Shown here piece by piece: positions 9,759 to 25,401 of a DNA stretch of 25,401 nt (the stretch's first letter is position 1; each line of letters begins with the position of its first letter). The position numbers and the translations under genes are program-made. The stretch covers positions 1-25,401 of the IMG/VR virus record IMGVR_UViG_2802429217_000002; one strand, 5' to 3'. The stretch comes from a virus. Lineage: Duplodnaviria > Heunggongvirae > Uroviricota > Caudoviricetes. The notes below the pieces were generated by a model. That model was not told the DNA's origin. It did no database searches and saw only the letters and a program-made list of their open reading frames with translations.

Positions 9759-9965
9759 ATGCTGAACCTCGATTGTGTTCCAATCTCAACTTATTGCAAA
9801 GAAACTGGCGAAACTCCTGAAGCAATAAACAAACGTGTACAGCGCGGTGTTTGGCGTGAAGGTGTTCAGGTTTTAAAGGTTGAAGGCGTTAAGGAGAGGT
9901 GGATTGATCTTAGTGAGGTTGCAAAATGGGCCAGACAAAACTGCTCAAACTACCGCGCGGCGTAA
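9759..9965 (+). CDS. xis: Excisionase (Xis-like)
   Basis: ATG at 9759 with GGAGAA RBS (track ORF begins at a GTG at 9747); small basic protein overlapping the int start, the classic xis-int arrangement. Confidence 0.6.
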   Translation: MLNLDCVPISTYCKETGETPEAINKRVQRGVWREGVQVLKVEGVKERWIDLSEVAKWARQNCSNYRAA

Positions 9966-11092
9966 CAATCAGGAAACACCGCCAGGGCGAAACGATCAAT
10001 ATAACTTTCACCTACAAAGGAGTTAAATGTCGTGAGCCTCTTTCCAATCTGGAAGTAACACCAAAGAACATAAAATACGCCGAGCGCACACTCGGCGAAA
10101 TTCATAATAAGATCGAAAGGGGAACATTCATTTATGCGGAATATTTTCCCCGTTCTGCTCGTTTGAAAATTTTTGGTAATGCTGCTGCAGGCAAAACGGT
10201 AAAAATGTACCTGGACGAATACCTTGAAATCTGCGAAACGAGAAAACTTTCACCCTCTACGATTGGTGGTTATAAAAAATGCCGTAGTGCGTTAGCCTCA
10301 CTCCACATTTGCCCTGCAAGTGAATTAACACCAGCAATCCTGAAAGCGTGGATTCAAAGCCAGAAAACGACCTTAAAAACAATTCGCAACCAGTTATCTT
10401 TCCTGCGGTCAGCACTTGATGAAGCCGTAACCGATGGGGTACTTCAAATTAACCCCGTATCGTTGGTAACTGCTTCGCGCTACCAAAGTGATAAGTCAGA
10501 AGCAGAAAGCAGCTACGTGGTTGATCCGCTATCACCAGCAGAAGTTGATGCATTACTAGCAGCAGCCGGAAACAAACAATGGGAAAATCTGTTCCGGTTC
10601 GCTATACATACAGGCCTGCGTAGTTCTGAATTATGTGCCCTTCGATGGCGTGATATCGACTTTGTTGGAAAAACTGCCCATGTCCAGAGCGCAAGTGTTG
10701 TCGGTGTTATCAAAGGGACAAAGACAAAAGCAGGTACTCGGAAAGTTGAACTGACAGAAGAGGCAATGTTGGCGCTGATAAATCAGAAGCCATTTACATT
10801 CATGAAGGATGCTACTGTCTTTGAAGATCCAAAGACCAATAAGCCTTGGGCAAGTGCTGATGCAATTAGGAAAAAAGCATGGGTGCCAACATTGCGAAAA
10901 GCAGGTATTCGTTACAGAAACCCATATCAAACCAGGCATACATTCGCCACCAGCCATATCAGCCGAGGAGCAAACCTGTTTTGGCTTGCAGCTCAAATGG
11001 GGCATAAAGGGCCTGAGATGCTTTTCAGGCACTATGGCTCATATCTGAAGGAATATGATGGACAAACAAGCTTGAAGAAGATAACAATATAA
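9926..11092 (+). CDS. int: Tyrosine-type site-specific integrase (lambdoid Int with N-terminal arm-binding region)
   Basis: 388-aa ORF; catalytic-domain signatures RFAIHTGLRSSELCALRWRDID, HQTRHTFATSHISRGANLFWLAAQMGHKGPEMLFRHYGSY (R...HxxR...Y). Confidence 0.85.
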   Translation: MGQTKLLKLPRGVTIRKHRQGETINITFTYKGVKCREPLSNLEVTPKNIKYAERTLGEIHNKIERGTFIYAEYFPRSARLKIFGNAAAGKTVKMYLDEYLEICETRKLSPSTIGGYKKCRSALASLHICPASELTPAILKAWIQSQKTTLKTIRNQLSFLRSALDEAVTDGVLQINPVSLVTASRYQSDKSEAESSYVVDPLSPAEVDALLAAAGNKQWENLFRFAIHTGLRSSELCALRWRDIDFVGKTAHVQSASVVGVIKGTKTKAGTRKVELTEEAMLALINQKPFTFMKDATVFEDPKTNKPWASADAIRKKAWVPTLRKAGIRYRNPYQTRHTFATSHISRGANLFWLAAQMGHKGPEMLFRHYGSYLKEYDGQTSLKKITI

Positions 11093-11109
11093 TCCAAGCA
11101 TGAAACTAT

Positions 11110-11132
11110 TGGCCACAATTTGTGGCCATTTT
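11110..11132 (+). terminator. Rho-independent terminator after int (perfect 9-bp palindrome TGGCCACAA-t-TTGTGGCCA followed by TTTT)
   Basis: Palindrome at 11110-11128 followed by T-run 11129-11132. Confidence 0.5.
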
Positions 11133-11150
11133 ACGGAGCAAGATAGAAAC

Positions 11151-12884
11151 ATGGCAAATCAAATTACCAAACTAAAAAATATAAATGTTGTGAAGTTTCG
11201 CGGACTGAAAAATATAAACATCGAGTTTGGTTCTCGCCTAACTGTTATTTGTGGTAAAAATGGCACATCTAAATCCACAATTCTTGGCATTATCGCCCAA
11301 ATATTTAGCTTTACAAAGGACTTTACCAAAAACCCTGAGACTGATTTAACACAATATAAAACATTAACAAATGGCAGCTTCAAGTCAGCTTTCAGCGAAC
11401 ATTTTAGGCTTTCAGAACAATTTGATGTTCCTGGTTCAATGGACGTCAAAATTAGTGTCTATGATGGTGCATCGAACAAACATCTTGAAAAACTAACATT
11501 AGGTTTATACAGCTACAGTGACAGAGATAAATCAAGGCCTGTAGTCAGGGGAAATGATTCAATACCGGAAAAAAACCAAAGTAGAAACGTTACTCATCCT
11601 GTTATTTTTTTAAGCTTAGCACGACTTCTTCCTATTACATTAAGGACTGATTACTCAACACGGGATGTTCAGTACATCAATGAAAATTCTGATGAAATCA
11701 GAATGATGAGTAACCAACTCTTACTAAAAAACAATGGAAGCTCAGTAACAGCAACAAAAGGTACTATCGATTCAATGGTTGTCCATGGTGACAATTATGA
11801 TCACCAATCAGTATCTGTTGGTGAAGATAATGTTGGACAATTAATCCAAGCAATTTTTTCATTTAAAAGATTGAAGGAAACTTATTCTGATTATCATGGC
11901 GGAATATTGTTAATTGATGAAGCCGATGCAGGTCTTTTCCCTGCTGCACAGTTAGAGCTAATTAATATTCTAACTAAAGCAGCAAAACAATACGATCTGC
12001 AAATAATCATGACCTCGCACTCTCCATTAATAATAGAGGATATCTATAATCGTTCAAAACAAGATAGTGATAGCTTTAAAACAATATATCTTACAGACAC
12101 ATATGGAGATATTAAAACAAAGAATAATCTTTCATGGACAGATATCCACGCTGATTTACATGTTGAAACTGTAAAAATTAATGATGACATTTGTCTTCCA
12201 AAGGCAAATGTATATTTTGAAGACAAAGAAGGTTTCGACTTTTTCAAACAATTGATAACAGATCGAAAAATAAATAAAATATTAAATCCATTAGGGAATA
12301 TAAATATTAGCTGCTCTGCCATGCTTGACTTAATGGCAAGAAAAATACCAGAATTTACAGCTAAAAGCTTGATCGTCTTAGACGGTGATGTTGTTCACGA
12401 CAATAGTGCTAATGCAAAAAAAGCCAAAAAAGAAAAAAACTTATGTTTGCTTCCAAGCACCTTACCTCCAGACCAAATGATTTTTGAGTTTTTATATAAT
12501 TTACCACCTGATGATGCATATTGGGAAAATAAAAATAAATTTACAAAAGCTGTTTTTATGAAAACAGCTAAAGACATAATTGCAACGCTAAAAATTGGTA
12601 ACGCTCCGATTGATTTAAAAATCCTTATAGATAATTATAAAAAAGTTAACAAAAACCATGGCGGGATAGTTAGAAAACTGTTTAAAGATTTTGCACATAC
12701 GACTCAATTTCAGGCCCAAGTAAAAGGGCGAGTTAAAGATAACCCATATCGATATTGGGTCGAGAAAAATCCTGTGCAATCGGATAGCTTCAAGAATGAA
12801 CTAATAAAGAGTCTTAAAGTTATTATGACAAGTGGACATGGTGTCGATTCTGCTACCATCTCATCATATCTGTCAGATAACTAA
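11151..12884 (+). CDS. OLD-family nuclease: N-terminal ABC-type ATPase plus C-terminal Toprim domain
   Basis: Walker A GKNGTSKST, Walker B ILLIDEADAGLFP, H-loop TSHSP; C-terminal Toprim-like Glu (VYFEDKEGFDFF) and DxD (IVLDGDVVHD), paralleling P2 Old motifs; ATG at 11151 assumed so that the int terminator is non-coding (track ORF starts 11100); AT-rich. Confidence 0.75.
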   Translation: MANQITKLKNINVVKFRGLKNINIEFGSRLTVICGKNGTSKSTILGIIAQIFSFTKDFTKNPETDLTQYKTLTNGSFKSAFSEHFRLSEQFDVPGSMDVKISVYDGASNKHLEKLTLGLYSYSDRDKSRPVVRGNDSIPEKNQSRNVTHPVIFLSLARLLPITLRTDYSTRDVQYINENSDEIRMMSNQLLLKNNGSSVTATKGTIDSMVVHGDNYDHQSVSVGEDNVGQLIQAIFSFKRLKETYSDYHGGILLIDEADAGLFPAAQLELINILTKAAKQYDLQIIMTSHSPLIIEDIYNRSKQDSDSFKTIYLTDTYGDIKTKNNLSWTDIHADLHVETVKINDDICLPKANVYFEDKEGFDFFKQLITDRKINKILNPLGNINISCSAMLDLMARKIPEFTAKSLIVLDGDVVHDNSANAKKAKKEKNLCLLPSTLPPDQMIFEFLYNLPPDDAYWENKNKFTKAVFMKTAKDIIATLKIGNAPIDLKILIDNYKKVNKNHGGIVRKLFKDFAHTTQFQAQVKGRVKDNPYRYWVEKNPVQSDSFKNELIKSLKVIMTSGHGVDSATISSYLSDN

Positions 12885-12963: not shown

Positions 12964-13863
12964 ATGCGTTTTAACACCCCACTTCGCTATCCTGGCGGTA
13001 AAGGCAAGCTTGCAAATTTCATGCTTCGGCTTATTGAAGAAAATAATCTTTCGCCTATACATTATGCCGAACCATATGCTGGGGGTGCTGGTTTAGCATT
13101 GAAACTGTTACATCTAAATGCAGCTGAAAAAATCATCCTTAATGATATTAATATTTCTGTTTATGCTTTTTGGCACAGTGTATTAAATCATGCAGATCAA
13201 TTATGTTCTTTAATTGAAAGAACTGAAGTTACAATGGATGAATGGTTTAGGCAGAAAGATATAATTAATAATCCTAAAGACCATGATCTTTTAACAATTG
13301 GTTTCTCAACCTTTTTTCTCAATAGAACAAATCGTTCTGGAATATTAAAAGGTGGAGTAATTGGCGGTAAAAATCAAGAAGGGAAATGGAAGCTTGACGC
13401 TCGCTATAATAAGAGTGATTTGATTTCTCGAATCCATAAAATATCAGAAAATCGTCACAGAATAGATTTATATAACATGGATGCAATTGATTTCATTAAA
13501 AAAATAGTTATTCAATTGCCACAAAACTCATTAACATATTTGGATCCACCTTATTACATAAAAGGTAAAGGTTTATATATCAACCATTATAATCATGATG
13601 ATCATGTTAGGGTTGCAAAAGTCGTACAGAATAATATTAAAACACCTTGGATTGTTTCTTACGATAACACTCCTGAGATCCAAGCTATGTATAAGACATC
13701 ATCATTAGTATATGGAATAAACTACAGTGCTCAAGATCGGTACAAAGGATCTGAGGTAATGTTCTTCAGTGAACGATTGAAAATCTTTAAAACAGATGAT
13801 CCAACTAAGGTAAAAGCGCCTGTATTTAAAAGAGGATGTGTTGACGACCACATCCAGACATAA
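12964..13863 (+). CDS. D12-class N6-adenine DNA methyltransferase (Dam family)
   Basis: Motifs LRYPGGKGK (Dam LKWAGGK), EPYAGGAGLAL (AdoMet binding), ILNDINISVYAFW, FFLNRTNRSG, LDPPYY (catalytic DPPY); AGAGG RBS; AT-rich. Confidence 0.85.
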   Translation: MRFNTPLRYPGGKGKLANFMLRLIEENNLSPIHYAEPYAGGAGLALKLLHLNAAEKIILNDINISVYAFWHSVLNHADQLCSLIERTEVTMDEWFRQKDIINNPKDHDLLTIGFSTFFLNRTNRSGILKGGVIGGKNQEGKWKLDARYNKSDLISRIHKISENRHRIDLYNMDAIDFIKKIVIQLPQNSLTYLDPPYYIKGKGLYINHYNHDDHVRVAKVVQNNIKTPWIVSYDNTPEIQAMYKTSSLVYGINYSAQDRYKGSEVMFFSERLKIFKTDDPTKVKAPVFKRGCVDDHIQT

Positions 13864-13935: not shown

Positions 13936-13968
13936 CGGACTCGGGTTCAACTCCCGCCAGCTCCACCA
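13936..13968 (+). other. ssrA: Attachment-site core: copy of the 3'-terminal 33 nt of the tmRNA gene ssrA (cGGACtCGGGTTCAACTCCCGCCAGCTCCACCA); the rest of ssrA is absent here
   Basis: Near-identity to the known 3' end of E. coli tmRNA; upstream sequence is unrelated to tmRNA. Confidence 0.8.
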
Positions 13969-14002
13969 AATCATGATCCGGATACGTCCGGTGAAGCACA
14001 GA

Positions 14003-14036
14003 AAGCCCGCACGGCACAAGCCCTGCGGGCTTTTTT
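14003..14036 (+). terminator. Rho-independent terminator (ssrA-type trailer terminator)
   Basis: Stem gcccgca/tgcgggc with 12-nt loop followed by TTTTTT. Confidence 0.7.
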
Positions 14037-14078
14037 GTGTCTGTCGTTGTCCGAGAACATCCGGCTAAATCCAGAGAA

Positions 14079-14101
14079 AATTGGTACACGTTTAGGTACA
14101 C
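14079..14101. repeat. 23-bp direct repeat AATTGGTACACGTTTAGGTACAC, left copy (candidate integrase arm-type site / element boundary)
   Basis: Identical 23-mer recurs at 25064-25086; partial inverted copy GTGTACCAATT at 14126-14136. Confidence 0.7.
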
Positions 14102-14151
14102 GCTATACTGTGGTCCATTAAACGTGTACCAATTATGGAAGGGATCCAGAC

Positions 14152-15342
14152 ATGGCGCGTATCACACGCCCCCTCACTAACAATGAAATCCTTAAAGCCA
14201 AACCCCGTGAAAAAGACTTCACCCTTCATGATGGTGATGGCTTGTTCTTGCTCGTCAAAACCACTGGTAAAAAACTCTGGCGCTTCCGTTATCAACGACC
14301 GGGAAGCAGCAGCCGCACAAATTTGAGTCTCGGCTCATATCCTGCCCTTACACTCGCAGCAGCTCGTCAGATACGCGACCAGCACTTAACCACGCTTGCG
14401 CAAGGTATGGATCCGCAGCAGCAACAAGAGCAGGCATCAGAACAACGTCAGATTGAGTTGGATAGTATTTTCTCAACTGTGGCCGCCAACTGGTTCAAAA
14501 TGAAGAGCAAAAGTGTCACTGAAGACTACGCTAAAGATATTTGGCGCTCTTTGGATAAGGATGTGTTCCCTGCAATAGGCGCGATTCCTGTTCAGGAGAT
14601 TAAGGCCAGAACTATAGTTGAAGCGTTGGAACCAATCAAAGCACGAGGTGCATTAGAAACTGTTCGTCGCTTGGTCCAGCGCATTAACGAAATAATGATT
14701 TACGCAGTTAACACAGGCCTGATTGATGCTAATCCGGCATCGGGTGTCGGAATGGCATTTGAGAAACCGAAAAAGCAAAACATGCCGACACTTCGACCAG
14801 AAGAATTGCCAAAGCTCATGCGCTCTTTGGTGATGTCGAATCTCTCAGTTTCGACCCGCTGTCTAATTGAATGGCAACTCCTGACGCTCGTGCGTCCATC
14901 TGAGGCTTCTGGCGCTCGGTGGGTAGAGATCGATCTTGATGCCAGGCTCTGGACAATTCCAGCAGAGCGGATGAAAGCAAATCGAGAGCATATCGTTCCT
15001 TTATCAACCCAGGCGTTAGAAATTTTGGAAGTAATGAAGCCTATTAGTGCTCATCGTGAACATGTCTTCCCCAGTAGAAATGATCCCAAACAGCCAATGA
15101 ATAGCCAGACGGCGAACGCTGCCTTAAAGCGGATTGGTTATGGTGGAAAGTTGGTTGCACATGGTTTACGTTCAATTGCGAGTACAGCTATGAACGAGGC
15201 GGGATTCAATGCTGACGTCATTGAGTCTGCTCTAGCACACTCTGATAGAAATGAAGTTAGAAGAGCTTATAATCGTTCTACATATCTAGATAAAAAAATA
15301 ATACTATTTAACTGGTGGGGTGCACAGGTCTATAAGAAGTAA
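14152..15342 (+). CDS. int: P4-type tyrosine integrase (CP4-57 IntA-like)
   Basis: 396-aa ORF; N-terminus MARITRPLTNNEILKAKPREKDFTLHDGDGLFLLV typical of P4-family integrases; located about 180 nt downstream of the ssrA 3' end as intA is in E. coli K-12. Confidence 0.85.
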   Translation: MARITRPLTNNEILKAKPREKDFTLHDGDGLFLLVKTTGKKLWRFRYQRPGSSSRTNLSLGSYPALTLAAARQIRDQHLTTLAQGMDPQQQQEQASEQRQIELDSIFSTVAANWFKMKSKSVTEDYAKDIWRSLDKDVFPAIGAIPVQEIKARTIVEALEPIKARGALETVRRLVQRINEIMIYAVNTGLIDANPASGVGMAFEKPKKQNMPTLRPEELPKLMRSLVMSNLSVSTRCLIEWQLLTLVRPSEASGARWVEIDLDARLWTIPAERMKANREHIVPLSTQALEILEVMKPISAHREHVFPSRNDPKQPMNSQTANAALKRIGYGGKLVAHGLRSIASTAMNEAGFNADVIESALAHSDRNEVRRAYNRSTYLDKKIILFNWWGAQVYKK

Positions 15343-15346
15343 ATAG

Positions 15347-15366
15347 AGCCTGCTGAAATGCAGGCT
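15347..15366. terminator. Hairpin between convergent int and hotspot gene (possible bidirectional terminator)
   Basis: Stem agcctgc/gcaggct with 6-nt loop; weak T-runs on both sides. Confidence 0.4.
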
Positions 15367-15374
15367 CCACTTCT

Positions 15375-18011
15375 TTATTCAGTAAATATTACATCATCAA
15401 TATTAAAAGACACTTTAAAATTAGGGTAGAGTTTCAATATTACCTTTTCGAAAATCTCATCATCATCATTTAAATTTCTTGCTCTTGAATAAAGACGGTA
15501 ATTATCTTTTGTTATTTGTTTAATTTCGATATGACAAGCATCATTACTATCAAAGCCTCTAAAGAAGGTAAAACTATCCAAACTTACAGCATAAATATTA
15601 TTCAAGGCATTTTCGTCCTCAAAGAAGTAAGTTAACTTATAATCCTTATAAACTTCATAATTATAGTTCTTAACTGAATTTTTATTCACAAATAATATAT
15701 AATTACTCTTCTCTATATCAGCATCATTAAATTTTAAAAAACGCCCTCCTGCTTTGACACAATTGAATAATTGCTGCTTATATATAGATATGATTCCATC
15801 GCCATATAGCCCAGCACTTGATAAATATGAAACATCATCAACCACGCCTAAAAACTCACGTTTTGATGGATAAAAAATTAGTTCACTTGTTTTATGGCAT
15901 ATAGGAAGCTTGGATAAATCAACATTTAATGTACTAACAAGCCATTTATTTAAATGTAAATTCACATCTATTTTAAAGCGTAATACAATGTTCTTATCCA
16001 TTGTCGATTTTATAACTTTTCTCGTAACTTCTTTGCTCTTATACTCCAACATCATATCAAATTTATCTTTAATTAAATCCACTTCCCTTTTCACTTCATT
16101 ATTATCATACCCCATAGATGTTACCATTATATCTAATTCAGGAGACTCACACGCTTTAATTAGCAGGTGATAGTCGTTAGAACTAAATCCCACCACATCG
16201 ACTAATTTACGCCAGTCGTACAAGTATCTCAGGTTAAACCCTCTACGTTTTACAGCCAAAACCAATAATATAAAGACTAATGCTCTTATTGCATAGTGAT
16301 ATTCTGTAACAGTATAGGCCTCACCTTCCGGGAGATTTCTAATTCGTTGTTCATCTATACTTGCACGAATTCTTTCTTCATAAGAACCAAATAACATTCC
16401 ATATAACTCAATTTCATCTGTATAATTAGAAAAGATAGCAAGATCGCTCCACAATTTGCTAGCATTAATTATCGCATCGATCTCCACGTCACTTTTATTG
16501 TCAGTTTGAATTGCGCTCCAACGCATCTGAAGAACAGTTAAAACAAACCGCTGAATTTTAAATATAACAGAAATAATTTCGCTAGCATTTCTTTTTTCTA
16601 AATTCAAATACTTGACACTAAGATGCTTAGTTCCTGCATTAAAGTAATCCCCCCAAAACATTATCGCACTGTAATCTAACTCATTGCATGCAGATTCAAT
16701 CAACCCTTTAATGACTTCATAATAGTCTGCGTTATCATCGTGATAACTCAAATAACTATTCAAGGTATCTTCATGATTTTTGATAAAAGCATTAAAGTCA
16801 TCTCTATTTAAAGAGAGTTTTGCTATCTGTATTATAAATTCTAACGCGGCAGTTTTCTTTCTAAGATTAACATTCAACTCAGAAAAATTATTCATTAACT
16901 CATCAATAGAATTTTTTTTCACATCCGAATTATTTAAATATTGATATGACAGTCCAAAAGCTATATCAAAAGGATATGCTGAAACATCCCCATTAACTAA
17001 GCATGAAAAAACATTAATAGCATTTCTTATTGACTCTCTGTTATTTTCCAAAAGAGCACTATACAGATAGATGACAACCCCATTAATTAATTCATCATAA
17101 TGATTAATCACTTTAAATTCATTATCTGTTATTAACACACCAACAATCAAAGAAGAAACTTTCTTTGATGATTTTTTATCCAAAATTTTTTTAGCCGTAT
17201 AATTAACTTCTATAGTTTTGCTTCCACTACTATGCAGGTTAATATTTGGCACAATAATTTCATATTCATCCAATAAACCTTTTATCTTCATTCCATTTAA
17301 AAAATTGTTTAGTTTATGGAATTTCTCTAAATCTATGTCAACAGTCAAAACATTATCACCCCCATATATCCCTATGCTATATGGTTGTTGCTTTTGCATT
17401 TTCATTTTGCCATAAGAATAATATCCATTTGGTAAATCTCTAACTAGATTTAAAATCTTATCATGTAATTCAGAGTTAGCATCCTCTAACAAGGTATAAC
17501 CCTTGACAAGACTTGAGCAGTGAGATTGTAAATACTCAACAGCGAAGTTCTTATTACGTGACATGTTAAATAATTTCAAGTATGTTTTAAAATACTTCAA
17601 AAGAAAATACATTGATAGTAATTGTGACACCACATACTGAGCAATACCACCACCAAAAACAAAAAAGAAGAATGAAATTATCAAGGTTGATATTGCATCA
17701 ATACCAAACTGCACAAGGTTGATTTCATCCAGTATCTTTTTCCTAATATAACTTTCCAACGCATGAGGTGAGGATTTATTAACAGCATCAACAGTCACAC
17801 TCATAAAAGTTAATGACAACGCACTGATTGTACCGTGTATACCTAAGGAGACCCCCCAAGCACTAAATATCCAATCAAACCCCAATTTTTTTAAATCACT
17901 AGAATTAGAAAACAACCACCACCACTCATTTTTACAAAAAAAAACAAGAATACATAAAGTAAAAAAAATAAAAAAACCAGAGATATAACAAAACAATCTT
18001 TTACCCATCAT
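15375..18011 (-). CDS. Uncharacterised 878-aa protein with N-terminal transmembrane segments; hotspot cargo, candidate anti-phage defense protein
   Basis: Uninterrupted ORF; AAGGA RBS; N-terminal hydrophobic stretches (FCYISGFFIFFTLCILVFF, WIFSAWGVSLGIHGTISALSLTFM, AISTLIISFFFFVFGGGIAQYVV); very AT-rich versus the GC-rich P4 core genes; lies between int and cos where P4 carries gop/beta/cII. Confidence 0.7.
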   Translation of the reverse strand: MMGKRLFCYISGFFIFFTLCILVFFCKNEWWWLFSNSSDLKKLGFDWIFSAWGVSLGIHGTISALSLTFMSVTVDAVNKSSPHALESYIRKKILDEINLVQFGIDAISTLIISFFFFVFGGGIAQYVVSQLLSMYFLLKYFKTYLKLFNMSRNKNFAVEYLQSHCSSLVKGYTLLEDANSELHDKILNLVRDLPNGYYSYGKMKMQKQQPYSIGIYGGDNVLTVDIDLEKFHKLNNFLNGMKIKGLLDEYEIIVPNINLHSSGSKTIEVNYTAKKILDKKSSKKVSSLIVGVLITDNEFKVINHYDELINGVVIYLYSALLENNRESIRNAINVFSCLVNGDVSAYPFDIAFGLSYQYLNNSDVKKNSIDELMNNFSELNVNLRKKTAALEFIIQIAKLSLNRDDFNAFIKNHEDTLNSYLSYHDDNADYYEVIKGLIESACNELDYSAIMFWGDYFNAGTKHLSVKYLNLEKRNASEIISVIFKIQRFVLTVLQMRWSAIQTDNKSDVEIDAIINASKLWSDLAIFSNYTDEIELYGMLFGSYEERIRASIDEQRIRNLPEGEAYTVTEYHYAIRALVFILLVLAVKRRGFNLRYLYDWRKLVDVVGFSSNDYHLLIKACESPELDIMVTSMGYDNNEVKREVDLIKDKFDMMLEYKSKEVTRKVIKSTMDKNIVLRFKIDVNLHLNKWLVSTLNVDLSKLPICHKTSELIFYPSKREFLGVVDDVSYLSSAGLYGDGIISIYKQQLFNCVKAGGRFLKFNDADIEKSNYILFVNKNSVKNYNYEVYKDYKLTYFFEDENALNNIYAVSLDSFTFFRGFDSNDACHIEIKQITKDNYRLYSRARNLNDDDEIFEKVILKLYPNFKVSFNIDDVIFTE

Positions 18012-18119
18012 TCGTCCTTATGTTTTTTGGGTATTGTAAACCAAAGATAAAACCCTCTATGGTTTTGCATGCCCTGTATATTGATTTGTGTAAATTAGCT
18101 CATTACCAATTAGCGCGCA

Positions 18120-18138
18120 ATGCTCTCCCCGCCACGCC
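18120..18138. other. cos-like site (reverse complement GGCGTGGCGGGGAGAGCAT, 16/19 match to the P2/P4 cohesive end GGCGAGGCGGGGAAAGCAC as I recall it)
   Basis: Read from the sequence; located next to psu as in P4. Confidence 0.5.
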
Positions 18139-18236
18139 TGCCCGCTTAAGAGGTCACTTTTAATGCAGGTGCATGACCCGACTCAGGCCGCGCCGGTACT
18201 GGTGTTGCGTGGGATAAAAAATACGAGGATTTGCAT

Positions 18237-18272
18237 GCAAAACCATGCACCTTATGGATGCATGGCTTTTTT
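18237..18272. terminator. Bidirectional rho-independent terminator downstream of psu
   Basis: Stem ccatgca/tgcatgg, 9-nt loop, flanked by AAAA and TTTTTT. Confidence 0.55.
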
Positions 18273-18312
18273 CAGAAAAAATAGCGGAATTTTCGGGTTT
18301 TTTTTTTGCGTG

Positions 18313-18879
18313 CTACCGTGCGGCCAGTTCTGCACGTCGGCGGGTGTAAATCAGGTTCTGTGCCGGGGTGAATTTCTGGCGATTATCATCCCGCGAGGCC
18401 GCATCAGGCCTGAATCCGATAGCCGTTAAAATGTCGCTGTCCTGCGCGGAATAATTAATTTTTTCACCTGCGGCCAGCCACACCGACAGGGCTTCACGCA
18501 GATAATCAACCGAGTGCTGCATGGCGCTCTGTTTTACTGCGGGAATTTGTTCGTGATATCCCATCAGCTCAGGCGCCAGCGTGGCGGCCAGATCCGCGCC
18601 GTGCTGCTGCATAAAGTCATGGAGCCGGTTGCGGATGCTGATGTGCTGCACTTCCTCATGTGAGCGGATATAGCGACCGGCAGCCTGATTAATCACCCAT
18701 TTTTTCACGTCGATATTGTCGCGCAAATCCTGCATTCTGCGCGGGATTTGTTCGTCACCAGCAAGGAGCTGTTCACGGTATTCAAGCTCAAGGTCAGCCA
18801 GTTCGGCTTTACGTTTCAGCCAAGTGTTTTTGTTCGTCTGACAGGCCTCAAAGGCCTGCTGCAATGTCACAGTGGTCAC
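18313..18879 (-). CDS. psu: Polarity suppression protein Psu
   Basis: 188-aa ORF; MTTVTLQQAFEAC..., YIRSHEEVQHISIRNRLHDFMQQHG, KINYSAQDSDILTAIGFRPD closely parallel P4 Psu as I recall it. Confidence 0.85.
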   Translation of the reverse strand: MTTVTLQQAFEACQTNKNTWLKRKAELADLELEYREQLLAGDEQIPRRMQDLRDNIDVKKWVINQAAGRYIRSHEEVQHISIRNRLHDFMQQHGADLAATLAPELMGYHEQIPAVKQSAMQHSVDYLREALSVWLAAGEKINYSAQDSDILTAIGFRPDAASRDDNRQKFTPAQNLIYTRRRAELAAR

Positions 18880-18894
18880 GTGTCTCTCTCCTGA

Positions 18895-19134
18895 TTAATG
18901 CCGGAACGGCGAGCTGTAGCAGCCCTGTACTTTACGCGGCGGCGGTGGCGTCACCGGTGCGGGGTCGGTTTTTTCCGGTGCGGCACGTATCACACCGTCA
19001 ACCGACTCGATGGTGCGGAAAGTGGCCGAGCATTCGATATTGGTACACTGGTGATAACGTTGTTTGACGTTTTCCGACAGATAACGGCTGGTACGGACGT
19101 GCGCGGTCTTTTTGCAGAACGGACAGTGAAACAT
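18895..19134 (-). CDS. delta: Ogr/Delta-family zinc-finger late transcription activator
   Basis: 79-aa ORF MFHCPFCKKTAHVRTSRYLSENVKQRYHQCTNIECSATF matches the P2 Ogr CxxC...CxxC motif. Confidence 0.85.
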   Translation of the reverse strand: MFHCPFCKKTAHVRTSRYLSENVKQRYHQCTNIECSATFRTIESVDGVIRAAPEKTDPAPVTPPPPRKVQGCYSSPFRH

Positions 19135-19137
19135 AAT

Positions 19138-19881
19138 TCAGCCCTCTGCCTGTTCGTGGTCTTTTGCGGCCAGTTCAGCGGCAAGCTTCATCCGTCTGGC
19201 GGGGCTTCTTAACAGCGCCATATCAACCCCGGTTATGACCGGGCGATTCATGCCCGTTACGGACAGAACCGGTTCCTGCTCCATATCGAAATGATACAGG
19301 GCTGACTGTAGATTCAGGGCATCGCCCAGCTCGCGGGTCACGGTCGCACGCGGCGAGGTTTCTCCGCTCATTTCCAGCGACCGTATACGCAACAGGAAGG
19401 CACGTAACAGTGCAGGGCTGATACCGGCCAGCACTTTCTTCCATTCGCTGTTGGCGTAAGTGGTGAATGCTTTTTCGTGGGCGCTGATATAAGCCGTACC
19501 GGAGGAGCATGCGCCAAGCATGGCGAGGCCTTTGTCTTTCTCCAGCTCGGTAATCAGACCGGTGAACTCATCAGCCAGTTCTCGGCTGGCGATACGTTTA
19601 CTGTGTTCAGCTTTCAGTTCAGGAGTGAGGTTGCCGCGCAGGGTTCGAAAGCGGCTGCGCCAGTCCTGTTCGGCCTGTGCGCTTTCACTGAGGGCAGTCT
19701 GTCGTTCCTGCTCACAACGCTGAATGGAAGCCTCAATGTCGCTGAGTTTACCCATGCTGGCCGTGTGTGCGTCTTTTGCTTCGTTAAGTGCGGCCAGCGC
19801 ACCGGCAATACGTTGTTCCGCGCCTTCATCCTGTTTACTGATAACGGTCTGCATGGCTTTGATAATGAGTTCGGGTTTCAT
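19138..19881 (-). CDS. sid: Capsid size determination protein Sid (P4-like)
   Basis: Position upstream of delta and psu in one operon; coiled-coil-like Ala/Glu-rich sequence; ATG at 19881 with GGAGAG RBS preferred over 19947 because the late-promoter activator site sits at 19954-19971. Confidence 0.7.
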   Translation of the reverse strand: MKPELIIKAMQTVISKQDEGAEQRIAGALAALNEAKDAHTASMGKLSDIEASIQRCEQERQTALSESAQAEQDWRSRFRTLRGNLTPELKAEHSKRIASRELADEFTGLITELEKDKGLAMLGACSSGTAYISAHEKAFTTYANSEWKKVLAGISPALLRAFLLRIRSLEMSGETSPRATVTRELGDALNLQSALYHFDMEQEPVLSVTGMNRPVITGVDMALLRSPARRMKLAAELAAKDHEQAEG

Positions 19882-19904
19882 GTTCAGGCTCTCCGTGTGT
19901 TCAA

Positions 19905-19971
19905 CCTGAAATGATTCTGACGCCTCCTGCACAACAACACGATTCATTGCCGTTGTCAGAGTGCTGGCACA
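19905..19971 (-). promoter_or_regulatory. P4 Psid-type late promoter with Ogr/Delta binding site TGT-N12-ACA
   Basis: TGT(19954-19956)-N12-ACA(19969-19971) dyad; its centre lies about 56 nt upstream of the predicted start, with a -10-like CAGAAT. Confidence 0.6.
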
Positions 19972-20050
19972 AACAGACCTTAAAATCAGGCTGGCCAGAG
20001 AAGGGTCGCAGGAAAACCTTACTCACCGTTTGTTTTTTTGCTTATAACTA

Positions 20051-20170
20051 TTCACCACTGTTCACCCTAAATAAAAAGATAAGCGATACAGTAAGTTAAA
20101 GGGTGAATAGTTGAGGGTCTGACTGTTCACCGTCTGTTCACCACTGTTCACCCTTCACTTTGTGAAGCCA
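20051..20170. repeat. Cluster of TGTTCACC octamers (P4 alpha-protein type I iteron motif), candidate ori
   Basis: TGTTCACC at 20124, 20135, 20145 plus variants at 20051-20067 and GGTGAATAG at 20101. Confidence 0.55.
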
Positions 20171-20244
20171 GTCAACCTATTAGATTTTTTAGCGATTAAA
20201 AAAACAGAAGTATATAAACAAAAGTAATCAGCAATGGGCCACCG

Positions 20245-20283
20245 GTTTGCCAACGTTTGCCAAAAAACGGCCAACGTTTGCCA
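20245..20283. repeat. Three copies of GTTTGCCA (two as GCCAACGTTTGCCA) upstream of alpA; candidate regulator-binding repeats
   Basis: Copies at 20245-20252, 20255-20262, 20276-20283, followed by TATAAA. Confidence 0.35.
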
Positions 20284-20422
20284 CTGTATAAAAATCGCTC
20301 TGTTGTGTGGTGGAGTACTACAAAATGACTTGTTGCCCTGAGGGAAAATATTCACAAAATAGAGAGCTACCCGAAGCCGGACGGACACGACCGGCACTGT
20401 ATGGACTTTGTGAGGTAGCCCG

Positions 20423-20689
20423 ATGCACACCGCTTTTTCTTCCCCGTCTTCTACCCCTGCCGCGCCGCTGATGCCGGTTTCTGATACCGTTCACGAACGC
20501 TTTATCCGTCTGCCCGAAGTGATGCATCTGTGCGGCCTGTCCCGCTCGACCATTTACGACCTCATCAGCCGGGAAGCCTTCCCGAAACAAATCTCCCTCG
20601 GCGGGAAAAATGTGGCGTGGGCGCAGTCTGAAATCACTGCATGGATGGCGGATCGCATTGCCGAACGTAACCGGGGCTATGACGCATGA
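20423..20689 (+). CDS. alpA: AlpA-family phage regulatory protein / excisionase
   Basis: [55 protein letters not shown] matches the AlpA/Vis HTH family; GAGG RBS. Confidence 0.7.
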
Positions 20690-21027
20690 TGATGACCGTT
20701 CAGCAAACAGCCCCTTTTTCTGGCTTGCTTCTTTTCGCCGTTTCCAGGTATAGTTTTCCCGCTGTCGCAAAATCGGCAGCCGGGCGTAGGAACCCGTGTT
20801 TAACTATGGCGACACCGGACGCGCCTTGCGTCTTTTTTTGTGTCTGTGCCTTGATGCACCCATTCAATACACAGTGGCCTTTTCGCCATTGTGGGTATCG
20901 CGTAATGGTGGCTCAGGCGGGGCAGCCTTCGGGCTGGCCGGTTCTCATAGTTACCGGTATTCCTACCCCCGTCTGGGCTACCACCCATGAGCGTAGGAAC
21001 TCCGATGGTAGCTGTAACCAGCTAACT

Positions 21028-21237
21028 ATGGAGGTTGCCCTTATGGCTATGACCCTCACCCCGTCACACCCGCAGTTTGTCTTTGTGTTTGCCGCCGTTC
21101 GTCGCGCAGACCGTAAACCCCGTATTTGCATGCTGCGCACCGTTGCCGGTGACGAGCACGCCGCACGCCTTTCCCTCGTTCGCGATTACATCCTCTCGTT
21201 CGCTGGCCGTTTGCCGGTTCTGGAGGTGCGCGCATGA
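21028..21237 (+). CDS. Small hypothetical protein of the P4-like early operon (tentative)
   Basis: Internal ATG of track ORF 20686-21237; upstream part of that ORF looks non-coding (repeats and hairpins). Confidence 0.3.
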
Positions 21238-21461
21238 GACACACCACCATTACCGCCCGTGACCTCGAATGCCTTGAGCATATGCGCAATGTCGGCCAGC
21301 TCGTCAATGAGCTGATGCAGGTGCAGGATTGCGCCACCGTTCGTCGTGACCCGGCGCAGCAGTTACAGCTCACCTCCGTGATTTACCTCATGACCGCCCA
21401 GCTCGACGGCGTGGTCGAACGCTGCAATCAGCAGTGGCTGACCGGGGAGGGTAACGTATGA
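21234..21461 (+). CDS. Hypothetical protein (position of P4 epsilon-like gene)
   Basis: 75-aa ORF overlapping neighbours by 4 nt on both sides, indicating operon coupling. Confidence 0.45.
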
Positions 21462-21778
21462 AACAGCCATTACCGCCCGTATTACGCGCCGCGCAGTATC
21501 GTCGCGCCGTGGCCTGTGCATGGCTGACCCTGTGCGAACGCCAGCACCGCTACCCGCACCTCACCCTCGACGCGCTGGAAAGCGCCATTGCCGCCGAGCT
21601 GGAGGGCTTTTACCTGCGCCAGCACGGCGAGGAAAAAGGCCGCCAGATTGCCTGTGCCCTGCTCGAAGATTTAATGGAAGCCGAACCACTCAAGGCCGCG
21701 CCGTCGCTGTCCTTTCTCGGGCTGGCCGTGATGGATGAACTCTGCGCCCGTCATATCACCGCACCGGCACTGCACTGA
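21458..21778 (+). CDS. Hypothetical protein upstream of alpha primase
   Basis: 106-aa ORF, translationally coupled to the upstream gene. Confidence 0.5.
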
Positions 21779-21789
21779 GGGAGAACACC

Positions 21790-24123
21790 ATGAAAATGAA
21801 CGTAACGGACACCGTAAAACAGGCGTGCGGCCACTGGCCGCGCATTCTCCCGGCGCTGGGGGTAACGGTCATCAAAAACCGCCATCTGACCTGTCCGGTG
21901 TGTGGCGGCTCCGACCGCTTTCGCTTTGACGATAAAGAGGGACGCGGGACGTGGTTCTGCAATCAGTGCGGCGCGGGTGACGGGCTTAAGCTGGTAGAAA
22001 AAGTGTTTGGCGTGACCCCGTCAGAGGCGGCCGGGAAGGTGAACGCCGAGACCGGCAACCTGCCGCCGGTTGCCCCGGAAGTGATTGCGGTCGCAGAGGC
22101 TGAAACGGAGGCCGACCGCAAAGCGGCGGCCACGCTGGCCGTCAGGCTCATGGAGAAAACCCGACCAGCCACCAGCAATGCCTACCTCACCTGCAAGGGT
22201 TTCCCCGCTCTGGAATGTCTGACGCTCACCGCCATGCATAAAACCGGCGGCGTGACGTTCCGCGCCGGGGATGTGGTTGTCCCGCTGTATGACAATACCG
22301 GCGTACTGGTTAACCTTCAGCTTATCAATGCAGACGGTCTCAAACGCACCCTGAAAGGCGGGCAGGTCAAAGGGGCATGTCATATCATCGAAGGGAAAAA
22401 ACAGGCCGGAAAACGCCTGTGGATTGCGGAGGGTTATGCGACCGCGCTCACCGTGCATCACCTGACAGGGGAAACCGTCATGGTGGCGCTGTCCTCCGTG
22501 AACCTCCTTTCTCTGGCAAGCCTTGCCCGTCAGAAATATCCGGCCTGTCAGATTGTCCTGGCCGCCGACCGTGACCTTAACGGCGACGGCCAGAGTAAAG
22601 CCGCTGCGGCCGCAGATGCCTGTGAGGGCATTGTTGCCCTGCCGCCGGTGTTCGGTGACTGGAATGATGCGTTTATGCAGAAAGGTGAAGAAGCCACCCG
22701 GAAAGCCATTTATGACGCCATCCGGCCACCGGCGCAAAGTCCGTTCGACACCATGAGCGAGGCGGAATTTACCGCCATGAGCGCCAGCGACAAGGCTTTG
22801 CGGGTGCATGAGCACTACAGCGAAGCGCTGGCGGTGGATGCTAACGGCCAGCTCCTGTCCCGCTATGAAAACGGCATCTGGAAAAATATCCCTGCCGCCA
22901 CTTTTTCACGGAATGTGGCTGATTTATTCCAGCGCCTGCGCGCCCCGTTCTCGTCAGGGAAAATTGCCTCGGTGGTCGAGACCCTGAAACTGATTATTCC
23001 GCAGCAGGATACACCGGCGCGCCGTCTGATTGGCTTTCGCAATGGGGAACTCGATACCCAAAGTGGCCTGTTCAGCCCGCACAGTAAATCGCACTGGCTG
23101 CGCACGCTGTGCGACGTGGATTTCACCCCGCCGGTGGACGGAGAAACGCTGGAGACTTACGCGACGAACTTCTGGCGCTGGCTCGACCGTGCGGCCGGTA
23201 AAAATCCCCAAAAACGCGATGTGATTCTGGCTGCGCTGTTTATGGTGCTGGCGAACCGCTACGACTGGCAGCTCTTTCTCGAAGTCACCGGTCCCGGCGG
23301 GAGCGGCAAAAGTATTCTGGCCGAAATCGCGACCCTGCTCGCCGGGGAAGATAATGCCACGTCAGCCGATATCGACACACTGGAAGACCCGCGCAAGCGT
23401 GCCTCCCTGATTGGCTTCTCGCTAATCCGTCTGCCAGACCAGGAAAAATGGAGCGGTGACGGCGCAGGACTCAAGGCCATCACCGGCGGCGATGCAGTTT
23501 CAGTTGACCCGAAATACCAGAATCCGTACTCAACGCATATTCCGGCGGTGATTCTGGCCGTGAACAATAACCCGATGCGCTTCACCGACCGCAGCGGCGG
23601 CGTCTCCCGTCGCCGGGTGATTATTCATTTCCCGGAGCAGATTGCCCCGGAGGAACGCGACCCGCAGCTCAGGGATAAAATTGCACGCGAGCTGGCCGTC
23701 ATCGTGCGCCAGCTTATGCAGAAATTCAGCGACCCGATGACCGCGCGCGCACTGCTCCAGTCGCAGCAGAACTCCGACGAGGCACTCAGCATTATGCGCG
23801 ATGCTGACCCGACGTTTGATTTTTGCGGCTATCTGGAGATGCTCCCGCAGACCAACGGGATGTTTATGGGGAATGCCAGCATCATCCCGCGTAATTATCG
23901 TAAATATCTCTATCATGCGTATCTGGCCTATATGGAGGCTAACGGATACAGGAACGTGCTCAGCCTGAAAATGTTCGGGCTGGGGCTGCCCATGATGCTG
24001 AAAGAGTACGGCCTGAATTATGAGAAGCGGCACACCAAGCAGGGGATACAAACCAACCTGTCGCTGAAAGAGGAAAGCTACGGCGACTGGCTGCCGAAGT
24101 GTGACGCCCCCACAGCGACATAA
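21790..24123 (+). CDS. alpha: P4 alpha-type bifunctional DNA primase/helicase
   Basis: 777-aa ORF; N-terminal zinc-binding CPVCGG...CNQCG, central toprim-like region, C-terminal P-loop VTGPGGSGKS; length matches P4 alpha as I recall it. Confidence 0.9.
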   Translation: MKMNVTDTVKQACGHWPRILPALGVTVIKNRHLTCPVCGGSDRFRFDDKEGRGTWFCNQCGAGDGLKLVEKVFGVTPSEAAGKVNAETGNLPPVAPEVIAVAEAETEADRKAAATLAVRLMEKTRPATSNAYLTCKGFPALECLTLTAMHKTGGVTFRAGDVVVPLYDNTGVLVNLQLINADGLKRTLKGGQVKGACHIIEGKKQAGKRLWIAEGYATALTVHHLTGETVMVALSSVNLLSLASLARQKYPACQIVLAADRDLNGDGQSKAAAAADACEGIVALPPVFGDWNDAFMQKGEEATRKAIYDAIRPPAQSPFDTMSEAEFTAMSASDKALRVHEHYSEALAVDANGQLLSRYENGIWKNIPAATFSRNVADLFQRLRAPFSSGKIASVVETLKLIIPQQDTPARRLIGFRNGELDTQSGLFSPHSKSHWLRTLCDVDFTPPVDGETLETYATNFWRWLDRAAGKNPQKRDVILAALFMVLANRYDWQLFLEVTGPGGSGKSILAEIATLLAGEDNATSADIDTLEDPRKRASLIGFSLIRLPDQEKWSGDGAGLKAITGGDAVSVDPKYQNPYSTHIPAVILAVNNNPMRFTDRSGGVSRRRVIIHFPEQIAPEERDPQLRDKIARELAVIVRQLMQKFSDPMTARALLQSQQNSDEALSIMRDADPTFDFCGYLEMLPQTNGMFMGNASIIPRNYRKYLYHAYLAYMEANGYRNVLSLKMFGLGLPMMLKEYGLNYEKRHTKQGIQTNLSLKEESYGDWLPKCDAPTAT

Positions 24124-24131
24124 CCTCACTC

Positions 24132-24156
24132 AGACCGGCAACAGCCGGTCTTTTCC
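24132..24156 (+). terminator. Rho-independent terminator after alpha
   Basis: Stem agaccggc/gccggtct, 4-nt loop, followed by TTTTCC. Confidence 0.6.
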
Positions 24157-24174
24157 TTTCTGGCCATTGCCACA

Positions 24175-24440
24175 GGGTGAACAATCCACTGTTCACCCTT
24201 CACCGTATATTCACCCTGTATCACCATGAAATTATTGATAAAAAACCATAGGTGAACAGTGTGAACAGTAAAACCTAAAAAAACTTTTTATCCCTCCACC
24301 ACATCGCCTGACCGGGCGCATCCAGAGCGAGAAAAAATCACAAAGGTGAAGAGTCGACTGTTCACTCTTCACCAACTCATCACCATTTATCTTTATGATT
24401 TAAAATAGAAAATAAGCATGGTGAACAGTGTGAACAGTTA
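24175..24440. repeat. crr-like iteron region: multiple TGTTCACC/GGTGAACA octamers including an about 45-bp direct repeat
   Basis: GGGTGAACAatccacTGTTCACCC (24175-24204), GGTGAACAGTGTGAACAG at 24251-24268 and 24423-24440, inverted GGTGAAGAG/CTCTTCACC at 24344-24372. Confidence 0.6.
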
Positions 24441-24564
24441 AATGTAAAAAAACTTTTTTTGAGTATGATGTAGCTCTCCATACTTTATGGAAAGATCCAA
24501 GTTAGCTGAAAGCCTCACCAAGACAGCACGTTAATTCGTAACGTGTTAAGCAAAAGGGAATTTT

Positions 24565-25065
24565 ATGGGGACTACTTTGCTTCAAGAAAACCATGAAAAA
24601 ATTTTAAACATACTAAATGAAGCTAAAGATGTGGCGCTAAGGTATTACAAACTAACCAATAAGCCTCTCGGAATCACTGGAGAAATAGCTGAACATGAAG
24701 CTGCAACTCTTCTCGGGTTGTCACTATGTTCAGCACGTCAGTCCGGATACGATGCGACTGAGATTTTGGACGGGAAAGAATATAGAGTTCAAATCAAAGG
24801 TCGATATATGCCTGATCCTAAAAAAGTCTCTGCGAGAATTGGTGCTATTGATATAGCTAAGCCATTTGATTCTGTTCTTTTAGTTTTGCTTGATGAAAAT
24901 TATGATGCTTTTGCCATGTATGAAGCATCACGAGATGTAGTAGTCGCAGCTCTTCAAGCTCCGGGGTCAAAGTCTAGAAATGAGCGAAATCAGCTAGGCA
25001 TAGCAAAATTCAAGTCCATTAGCCGTCTCCGCTGGAGCAAGGATGTTGAACCTGAGATCCTTTAA
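24565..25065 (+). CDS. Hypothetical 166-aa protein, AT-rich cargo at right end of the satellite
   Basis: ORF with GGGAA SD-like sequence; no confident motif (possible D...QIK nuclease-like signature); ends 1 nt before the right 23-bp repeat. Confidence 0.5.
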   Translation: MGTTLLQENHEKILNILNEAKDVALRYYKLTNKPLGITGEIAEHEAATLLGLSLCSARQSGYDATEILDGKEYRVQIKGRYMPDPKKVSARIGAIDIAKPFDSVLLVLLDENYDAFAMYEASRDVVVAALQAPGSKSRNERNQLGIAKFKSISRLRWSKDVEPEIL

Positions 25066-25086
25066 TTGGTACACGTTTAGGTACAC
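25064..25086. repeat. 23-bp direct repeat AATTGGTACACGTTTAGGTACAC, right copy
   Basis: Identical to 14079-14101. Confidence 0.7.
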
Positions 25087-25145
25087 AACTGAAAGTTGAA
25101 TACGAAAAAATCCTTTATATTTAAAGCATTGAGTAATTTATTCAG

Positions 25146-25174
25146 ACTCCGCCAGCAATCATGATTGGACGGTG
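25146..25174 (+). other. Degenerate copy of the ssrA 3' end plus trailer (ACTCCGCCAGC-AATCATGATTGGACGGTG), candidate right att of the satellite
   Basis: Aligns to 13950-13993 with a 1-nt and a 7-nt deletion and a few mismatches. Confidence 0.4.
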
Positions 25175-25286
25175 CAAGGACAACACCAACAAAAACAGGA
25201 AGTTAGAAGTCTCAGCAAGACACCGACCAGACGGTGAGGAGACATAAAAGGATACGCAAAGGAGCCGCGGCTCCTGGTGATATGAA

Positions 25287-25308
25287 AGCCCACAGATGTG
25301 GGCTTTTT
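25287..25308. terminator. Hairpin terminator (agcccaca/tgtgggct followed by TTTTT)
   Basis: Located between the satellite right end and the convergent downstream gene. Confidence 0.5.
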
Positions 25309-25316
25309 CGTTGATG

Positions 25317-25401
25317 GTCAGAACGACCAGTTCACACCAGCCACCGCGTTCCACGGGGATTCCACACCGGCACCATGGCTATACCCCACCCCGAGATGCC
25401 C
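25317..25401 (-). CDS. 3' end of a gene truncated by the window edge; encoded C-terminus ...GVNWSF resembles an outer-membrane beta-barrel / autotransporter terminus
   Basis: Minus-strand translation of the last 84 nt ends ...SPWNAVAGVNWSF-stop, with aromatic-x-aromatic C-terminal Phe. Confidence 0.35.

Follow-up and report, generated by a model that had tools for sequence, protein, structure and literature searches.

The gene and its satellite

The window (the whole 25,401-nt stretch of viral DNA analyzed here, from IMG/VR record IMGVR_UViG_2802429217_000002) carries an integrated element whose features are collected in Table 1. Pfam searches identified an integrase, Psu, Ash, DUF5375 and the alpha protein in this element, Rfam searches identified a C4 antisense RNA and isrK, and Ogr_Delta and AlpA were called in loci that are 99.9–100% identical to the window over its right-hand end (24000 onward). 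A Sid-like 269-aa ORF produced no Pfam match. We could thus confirm the surrounding element as a P4-like satellite. Near its right end lies a gene for a 166-aa protein, and both the coordinates and a repeat search agreed with an earlier, first-pass annotation of the window in placing this ORF after crr-like iterons and before a 23-bp repeat.

Table 1. Positions of the gene for the 166-aa protein, its flanks and the ends of the satellite within the window.
Feature	Position	Strand	Basis or remark
attL side GGTTCAACTCCCGCCAGCTCCACCA, exact last 25 nt of ssrA	13944..13968	+	sequence match
matching 23-bp repeat, 100% identity	14079-14101		P' arm, just upstream of integrase start
inverted copy of the repeat's first 15 nt	14120-14134		P' arm, beside integrase start
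integrase	14152-15342		
878-aa cargo gene	15375-18011	minus	
P4-type alpha primase-helicase, 777 aa	21790..24123	+	Pfam Zn_Ribbon_Prim, Toprim_3, D5_N, DUF5906, Pox_D5
terminator-like hairpin	24132..24151	+	just past the alpha stop codon (24123)
crr-like region, two 114-nt direct repeats, TGTTCACC-type iterons	24176..24458	+	repeat search; left conserved flank of the slot
exchangeable cargo cassette, 611 bp, AT-rich	24453..25063	+	112 bp upstream region plus gene
weak candidate promoter, TTGAGT / 16 nt / TACTTT	24459-24464 / 24481-24486	+	tentative; within the conserved cassette leader
Shine-Dalgarno-like AAGGGA	24554..24559	+	5 nt before the ATG; sequence inspection
gene for 166-aa Esp638I ortholog	24565..25065	+	ATG start, TAA stop
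23-bp repeat AATTGGTACACGTTTAGGTACAC	25064..25086	+	probable integrase arm-type site, P arm; right conserved flank of the slot
attR core TTCAGACTCCGCCAGC, degenerate ssrA 3' end	25141..25156	+	true right end of the element

The gene is AT-rich like the other cargo, as had been noted (GC content of 0.407; alpha has 0.587 and the 878-aa gene 0.302). Estimates of dN/dS against orthologs at 85–97% nucleotide identity ranged from 0.12 to 0.18, and we found 2027 homologous proteins, indicating that the ORF is a real gene, and not a chance reading frame, and that it is under purifying selection. The claim that it lacks a P4 counterpart also stood, as tblastn recovered no homolog of the protein among 50,697 phage records, which argues that this is not a phage or P4-reference gene. 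Upstream of the start codon, an A[A/G]GGG element was retained across nucleotide alignments of orthologous cassettes. A strict promoter scan revealed no consensus sigma-70 promoter, and the gene is presumably expressed in the lysogen from its own weak candidate promoter. We also considered a 7-bp inverted repeat (24527–24545) as a possible feature, but it was not kept in Lelliottia orthologs. The gene is solitary, with no cognate methyltransferase partner: none is encoded inside the P4-like element, and those present elsewhere in the window, in the neighboring prophage, are all of the N6-adenine type.

The ends of the element differ from those first proposed. The first-pass annotation had taken the 23-bp repeat as the right boundary, with the ORF ending 1 nt before it. 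The stop codon in fact overlaps the repeat, which takes in the final AA of the TAA (25064–25065) as its first two bases. Moreover, a third, inverted copy lies beside the integrase start, the motif directly follows the gene in all 22 loci from several genera that were searched for it, homology to Lelliottia and Enterobacter elements continues past the repeat to end at 25156, and copies of the ssrA 3' end lie at both ends of the element. Taken together, these observations show that the 23-bp repeat is not the element junction. The element spans about 13946–25156 and is integrated at ssrA, with the ssrA 3' end as the att core. E. coli KMi029 carries a complete ssrA gene directly left of the integrase, and in Lelliottia-type loci the corresponding position reads ...CCCCCAGCCCACCA, with an ssrA-type terminator after it. 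The host genes flanking these elements vary, and we considered whether this reflects different integration sites. However, an ssrA-3'-like core follows the gene in each of six loci (L006, L007, L009, L011, L021 and L022), so the differences between neighbors reflect species-specific surroundings of ssrA. The 23-bp repeats are probably integrase arm-type sites on the P and P' arms; the attP of P4 has repeats flanking its core. These corrected boundaries, with an ssrA 3' core and internal 23-bp repeats, matter for any attempt to delimit the satellite or its cargo cassettes.

An exchangeable slot between the crr-like region and the P-arm site

To the left of the gene, the crr-like repeat copies (24176–24289 and 24345–24458) are conserved across all related loci compared. 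E. coli TB06051 (locus L022) is homologous to the right-hand end of the window only over 24000–24452 and 25064–25401, with homology resuming exactly at 25064, the first base of the 23-bp repeat. Between these flanks, TB06051 carries a 1023-bp cassette encoding an AbaSI-family endonuclease in place of the 166-aa gene. The slot is thus, precisely, the interval from the last crr repeat to the P-arm site.

The AbaSI-family gene (PADLOC mREase_II PDLC03210) is present in 16 of 5426 complete E. coli genomes. Like the 166-aa gene it occupies the crr-to-arm-site slot, is solitary and belongs to a modification-dependent family, but its 293-aa product is an unrelated protein. Members of the AbaSI/PvuRts1I family target hm5C and glucosyl-hm5C and cut at a distance.

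We then asked how the slot is filled elsewhere. Both slot flanks occur close together in 167 complete E. coli genomes. Among the best 60 of these 167, the slot was empty (about 75–100 bp) in at least 43, held the AbaSI-family gene in 16 and held an Esp638I-like gene, as we identify the 166-aa gene below, in one (KMi029). The annotated status of the gene as accessory cargo at the right end of the element is borne out by these homologous E. coli elements, in which it is either swapped for the AbaSI-family gene or absent. In a sample of viral contigs, 7 of 64 P4-like loci carried an Esp638I-like gene; others carried an HNH nuclease, retron parts, an EcoRII-like gene, PDC-S05/RhuM, DUF6680, or unknown proteins of 232 and 270 aa, although these 64 loci were not delimited by att sites, such that some of the genes may fall outside the element. 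This mixed cargo ruled out the idea that the slot is reserved for modification-dependent nucleases only. The slot is, rather, a general minor cargo/defense hotspot.

Its location matches that of the 'primase-att' hotspot of P4 elements, described as a minor defense hotspot between the primase and one att site that holds 7% of P4 defense systems (PMC13586616). The exact limits, from the crr end to the arm site, were derived here, and neither Esp638I nor mREase_II is named in that paper's main text. Both a 2022 study and the Domainator paper were limited to the other hotspot, between psu and int.

The first-pass annotation had also raised the possibility that the gene co-varies with the 878-aa gene, which it described as a hotspot gene. 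This did not hold up. An Esp638I-like protein 97% identical to that of the window (P0004) occurs with at least five different psu-int cargoes, and the psu-int cargo of KMi029 is a 480-aa protein instead of the 878-aa gene. Conversely, the three complete E. coli genomes with the 878-aa gene all lack an Esp638I-like gene; IS elements interrupt the satellite in ETEC1732, whose alpha-att slot is unreadable. The psu-int slot and the alpha-att slot assort independently.

Relationship to Esp638I and the catalytic core

To identify the protein, we compared it with several family collections. The PADLOC model mREase_II (PDLC03209, Type II methyl-directed restriction enzyme) matched residues 1–166 of 166 with an E value of 6e-99. 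DUF6998 was the sole Pfam family to exceed its threshold, lying just above the gathering score; NCBIfam gave no match to the protein, and PHROGs gave only a weak match to a family of unknown function. The nearest database clusters consist of 166-aa Enterobacteriaceae proteins, and cluster P0021 carries GenBank ABP61776.1, the accession of Esp638I. This enzyme, from Enterobacter sp. 638, is a 166-aa distant homolog of BisI (PMC4926085). The window protein and Esp638I aligned without gaps over 166/166 residues at 88% identity (E value of 9e-109) and share the same catalytic motif.

The genomic context is also shared. The Esp638I gene lies in the same slot, ~440 bp after a P4 alpha gene, and both the 23-bp motif and an ssrA-3'-like core recur after it. 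Alpha was the upstream neighbor in 26 of the 26 close-ortholog loci examined, including Esp638I's own (CP000653), with the gene ~440 bp downstream of a 777-aa alpha in Lelliottia, Enterobacter, Klebsiella, Citrobacter and E. coli. What distinguishes the two proteins is 20 substitutions and the host, Enterobacter/Lelliottia for Esp638I and E. coli for the window variant. The window protein is therefore an ortholog of Esp638I. An identical protein is already public, from E. coli and Escherichia sp., under the names 'hypothetical' and 'DUF6998 domain-containing', and a full-text search for 'DUF6998' returned no paper. Our result closes an annotation gap, as the RefSeq/Pfam 'DUF6998 / hypothetical' family includes the biochemically characterized Esp638I, and it places Esp638I-type enzymes on ssrA-integrated P4-like satellites, for which our literature search found no prior statement. 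It is nevertheless a modest result of low novelty: an ortholog of a characterized enzyme in an already reported cargo slot. The first-pass annotation had made no link to Esp638I.

The Esp638I group carries a Mrr-like E---D-X12-QxK signature (PMC4926085). In the window protein we found the corresponding Mrr-like PD-QxK motif, D63-X12-Q76-I-K78, in which precisely 12 residues separate D from Q. The segment DATEILDGKEYRVQIKG, which spans residues 63–79, starts with the catalytic Asp D63 and holds the QIK. The first-pass annotation had pointed to this very segment as a PD-(D/E)xK motif; the motif is indeed present, but the grading of 'weak' was too cautious, since the match is strong. In Pam7902I, a Pseudomonas enzyme, substitutions E39A, D59A, K74A, D98A and D106A abolish activity and Q72A leaves it partial (PMC8281217). 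The alignment has no gaps over this stretch; matched by their spacing, these positions correspond to E43, D63, K78, D102 and D110 with equal spacings (20, 15, 39 and 47), and all six residues probed by mutagenesis are kept, with Q76 as the remaining one. Pam7902I, Pfl8569I and PaePS50I belong to the same subfamily (PMC8281217), and the Pseudomonas homologs of Esp638I are more distant, at about 55–62% identity to the window protein.

The six residues E43, D63, Q76, K78, D102 and D110 were invariant in 43 homologs at 54–97% identity; when two more distant relatives were added, D110 alone became nearly invariant and the others stayed invariant. Conserved positions in the C-terminal part of this alignment are G134, S135, R138, N139, I152 and W157. 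Of the 20 differences from Esp638I, none falls in an invariant column; 7 are among residues 1–14, and 3 (at 65, 69 and 73) fall within the hairpin that separates D63 from Q76.

Structure prediction supported the same assignment. The predicted structure contains a PvuII-like PD-(D/E)XK fold with an alpha0-alpha1-beta1-beta2-beta3 core, and its best structural matches are BisI-family structures (8q5m, 8q5n, 8q5o and 8rpx). We consider this nuclease fold a confident prediction. By sequence, the protein also matched Eco15I_Ntd (E value of 5.8e-5), with the AD...QIK residues aligned and the alignment ending at residue 126. The 88% identity to Esp638I, the catalytic motif and the predicted structure uphold the nuclease that had been guessed at for this gene. 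The product is small, within the 150–190 aa range, and is predicted to form one compact domain without a separate modification-sensor domain.

BisI, NhoI and Eco15I_Ntd share the PD-QxK fold and an alpha0 dimerization helix with the window protein, but only 16–27% identity, and the active site of Eco15I and NhoI is composed of a Glu from alpha1, an xD and a QxK (PMC11347163). Both these enzymes and the Esp638I group read several m5C bases in a short site and cut within it, but BisI-type enzymes cut GC^NGC to leave a 1-nt 5' overhang and Esp638I cuts GCN^NGC bluntly. NhoI and Eco15I act as homodimers that sense methyl groups in duplex DNA without base flipping, through a C-terminal (H/R)(V/I/T/M) motif that forms the methyl pocket (PMC11347163). 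No obvious (H/R)(V/I/T/M) pair was located by sequence at a conserved C-terminal column of the homolog alignment, and the alignment to Eco15I stops short of this region. PvuII itself is further removed: at about 10–12% identity, it is a Type IIP blunt cutter of unmodified CAGCTG that is blocked by its cognate methylation and has a methyltransferase partner.

These data bear on whether the gene has any defensive function at all. It could be a decaying or silent passenger or, given that it adjoins attP and crr, could serve integration or replication of the satellite. Such readings might draw on the lack of a consensus promoter in our scan, the overlap of the stop codon with a putative integrase arm site, and the empty slot in at least 43 of the 60 best E. 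coli elements. The empty slots, however, show that the gene is dispensable for satellite functions, and a passenger would not be expected to show a dN/dS of 0.12–0.18 with all catalytic residues intact, a confidently predicted nuclease fold, or a position that elsewhere holds other nucleases and defense genes. We therefore regard these explanations as barely plausible. Instead, the 166-aa gene is very probably an Esp638I ortholog that functions as a PD-QxK modification-dependent (Type IIM / Type IV) restriction endonuclease of the BisI superfamily, carried on a P4-like satellite.

Predicted activity and probable role in defense

Esp638I cuts GCS^SGC (relaxed RCN^NGY) to leave blunt ends and needs 4–6 m5C in GCNNGC/RCNNGY, an unmodified plasmid is a poor substrate, and no protecting methylase was supplied when the enzyme was purified from E. 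coli (PMC4926085). Pam7902I is 52% identical to Esp638I; it too cuts GCSSGC, and it also acts on hm5C DNA (PMC8281217). From this biochemistry we infer the activity and specificity of the window protein. It would be a single-domain, probably homodimeric, Mg2+-dependent nuclease that makes a blunt double-strand cut within a short GC-rich site (GCS^SGC / RCN^NGY) only if several of its cytosines are 5-methylated, and that spares unmodified DNA; DNA methylated by Dcm alone would likewise be a poor substrate. Metal chelation would fall to D63 and Q76, K78 would complete the active site as the motif lysine, and E43 of helix alpha1 would assist. As the enzyme would act on modified and not on unmodified DNA, it would need no methyltransferase partner.

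The specificity could have diverged within the same family and fold, such that the window protein recognizes another site, needs a different number of methyl groups, or prefers hm5C over m5C relative to Esp638I. Specificity in the BisI superfamily drifts fast, with recognition of GCNGC, RCNRC and GCNNGC and differing requirements for methyl number, and 3 of the 20 substitutions from Esp638I (positions 65, 69 and 73) lie in the beta-hairpin beside the active site, so the site preference could differ. All invariant family columns are unchanged in the window protein, though, and Pam7902I keeps essentially the Esp638I site at only 52% identity, suggesting that an ortholog at 88% identity most likely keeps it too. 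We consider a diverged specificity unlikely.

We also considered whether the protein acts on unmodified DNA as a nicking or toxic nuclease, in a manner resembling abortive infection or addiction, and not by modification-dependent restriction. The BisI homologs KpnW2I, VarFI, Bce1273I and Bth171I nick or cut unmodified DNA, and the authors of that work speculate that nicking of unmodified DNA could attenuate phage or kill the cell. Esp638I itself left some nicked circles on unmodified pBR322 (PMC4926085). Against this, Esp638I was expressed in E. coli without a protecting methylase and cut the unmodified plasmid poorly, and the gene is stable in many genera and under purifying selection, with no adjacent antitoxin or methylase. 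Toxicity of this kind is, in our estimate, very improbable.

As a modification-dependent enzyme, the protein would target phages substituted with m5C or hm5C, or incoming DNA whose donor methylates C5 heavily. The host's own DNA should be safe, as the Dcm site (C-m5C-WGG) places the modified C after a pyrimidine and carries two methyl groups only; an unmodified P2-type helper would also be spared. By analogy with the characterized enzymes, the gene likely has a role in defense against phages with modified cytosines or against foreign DNA densely methylated at C5; it is real and probably defensive, but ordinary. Our literature search found no report of an in vivo anti-phage phenotype for Esp638I itself. 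There is, however, an in vivo precedent in the family, as EcoBLMcrX restricts the hm5C phage T4gt in E. coli B (PMC5487053). Like the window gene, EcoBLMcrX is described as a BisI-family modification-dependent E. coli enzyme on a variable genomic island. By the same description, it belongs to another subfamily (Rm5C / RCNRC), and its island lies beside thiM, with a small regulator gene upstream and no P4 satellite.

Finally, we tentatively raise a broader possibility, which we hold to be rather doubtful: in P4-like satellites that target ssrA, Esp638I-type enzymes may have their natural home in the interval between crr and attP, and this slot may be a preferred site for solitary nucleases that sense modified cytosines, with recombination between the crr repeats and the integrase arm site swapping the cassettes. 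If so, these satellites would have a second, independent arm against hypermodified phages beside the psu-int hotspot, and the slot would provide a concrete in vivo setting for what BisI-family enzymes defend against. More generally, the combination of satellite, P2 helper and cytosine-modified phages suggests a natural system in which to study the physiological role of these enzymes. Candidates for such nucleases in the slot are the Esp638I-like (m5C/hm5C) and AbaSI-like (hm5C/glucosyl-hm5C) enzymes and an HNH protein whose N-terminus is Type IV-like.

Annotation of the 166-aa gene and its leader

The family of the 166-aa gene's product is listed in Pfam as PF22522 (DUF6998), with the label 'unknown function', even though the characterised Esp638I (ABP61776) belongs to it, and RefSeq likewise gives its members the name 'DUF6998 domain-containing protein'. 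Given the biochemistry of Esp638I, this labelling is an annotation gap. A full-text literature search found no mention of DUF6998. Just 5' of the ribosome-binding site, the leader of the gene holds a perfect 7-bp inverted repeat (CACGTTA-ATTCG-TAACGTG). Because this repeat is not conserved in the orthologous cassettes of Lelliottia and Enterobacter, we consider it probably without function.

Integration at ssrA and the ends of the satellite

Rfam matches to isrK and the C4 antisense RNA identify the P4-type immunity RNA region, and thereby confirm the regulatory core of the satellite. The integration site of this P4-like element is ssrA, whose 3' end recurs as an exact 25-nt copy to the left of the integrase and as a degenerate copy about 75 bp to the right of the 166-aa gene. 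The first-pass annotation had taken the 23-bp repeat as the right boundary. This assignment does not hold: the three copies in the window, one of them inverted, lie on both arms and internal to the element, with the ssrA 3' copies farther out. The 23-bp repeats look like arm-type sites for the integrase rather than the element junction.

To the left, positions 1-9500 of the window are a lambdoid prophage, so that ssrA appears to carry a tandem stack of three mobile elements. The order in ETEC1732 is similar: there, too, a P4-like element comes after a prophage.

Features of the window and of one compared locus
Feature	Position	Note
Q antiterminator	169-921	lambdoid prophage
Phage Dam methyltransferase	3458-4144	lambdoid prophage
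S24 repressor	6780-7454	lambdoid prophage
DUF968/HNH, KilA-N, CII-like protein	within 1-9500	lambdoid prophage
Prophage integrase	9926-11092	neighbouring lambdoid prophage
AAA_15/PtuA/AriA-like ATPase	11100-12884	
D12 N6-adenine methyltransferase	12964-13863	PADLOC PD-Lambda-5_B, 5e-124
ssrA 3' end, exact copy	13944-13968	
23-bp repeats	14079-14134, 25064-25086	
878-aa gene	15375-18011 (minus strand)	classical psu-int hotspot
isrK	20761-20838	Rfam, 70.6 bits
C4 antisense RNA	20901-20988	Rfam, 82.3 bits
Leader inverted repeat	24527-24545	
ssrA 3' end, degenerate copy	25141-25156	
AbaSI-family endonuclease, 293 aa	12325-13347 of L022 (E. coli TB06051)	PADLOC mREase_II PDLC03210, 4e-122

Other cargo of the prophage and of P4-like elements

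Two AT-rich genes separate the prophage integrase from the ssrA 3' copy. Encoding an ATPase and a D12 methyltransferase, they look like a PD-Lambda-5-like defence pair that the prophage carries between its int and att, with the satellite next in the tandem array. The 878-aa gene of the satellite's psu-int hotspot has a GC content of 0.30. Of 5426 complete E. coli genomes, only 3 carry this gene, in every case within a P4-like element. Its product, which had no match in Pfam and a marginal PADLOC match to AbiEi (8.8e-4), is a candidate uncharacterised single-gene defence protein.

In 16 complete E. coli genomes, TB06051 among them, the interval between crr and the arm site holds an AbaSI-family endonuclease gene instead; the satellite around it has often degenerated, with int, psu and alpha reduced to pseudogenes but the nuclease gene intact. 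Among the P4-like elements sampled from viral contigs, the commonest protein just 3' of crr belongs to a 232-aa family, present in L035 (where the ORF starts ~380 nt past the alpha stop) and nine similar loci, and matching nothing in Pfam or PADLOC. A 270-aa family, likewise unannotated, is found in L048 and two similar loci. Both families may represent unknown cargo of the primase-att slot.
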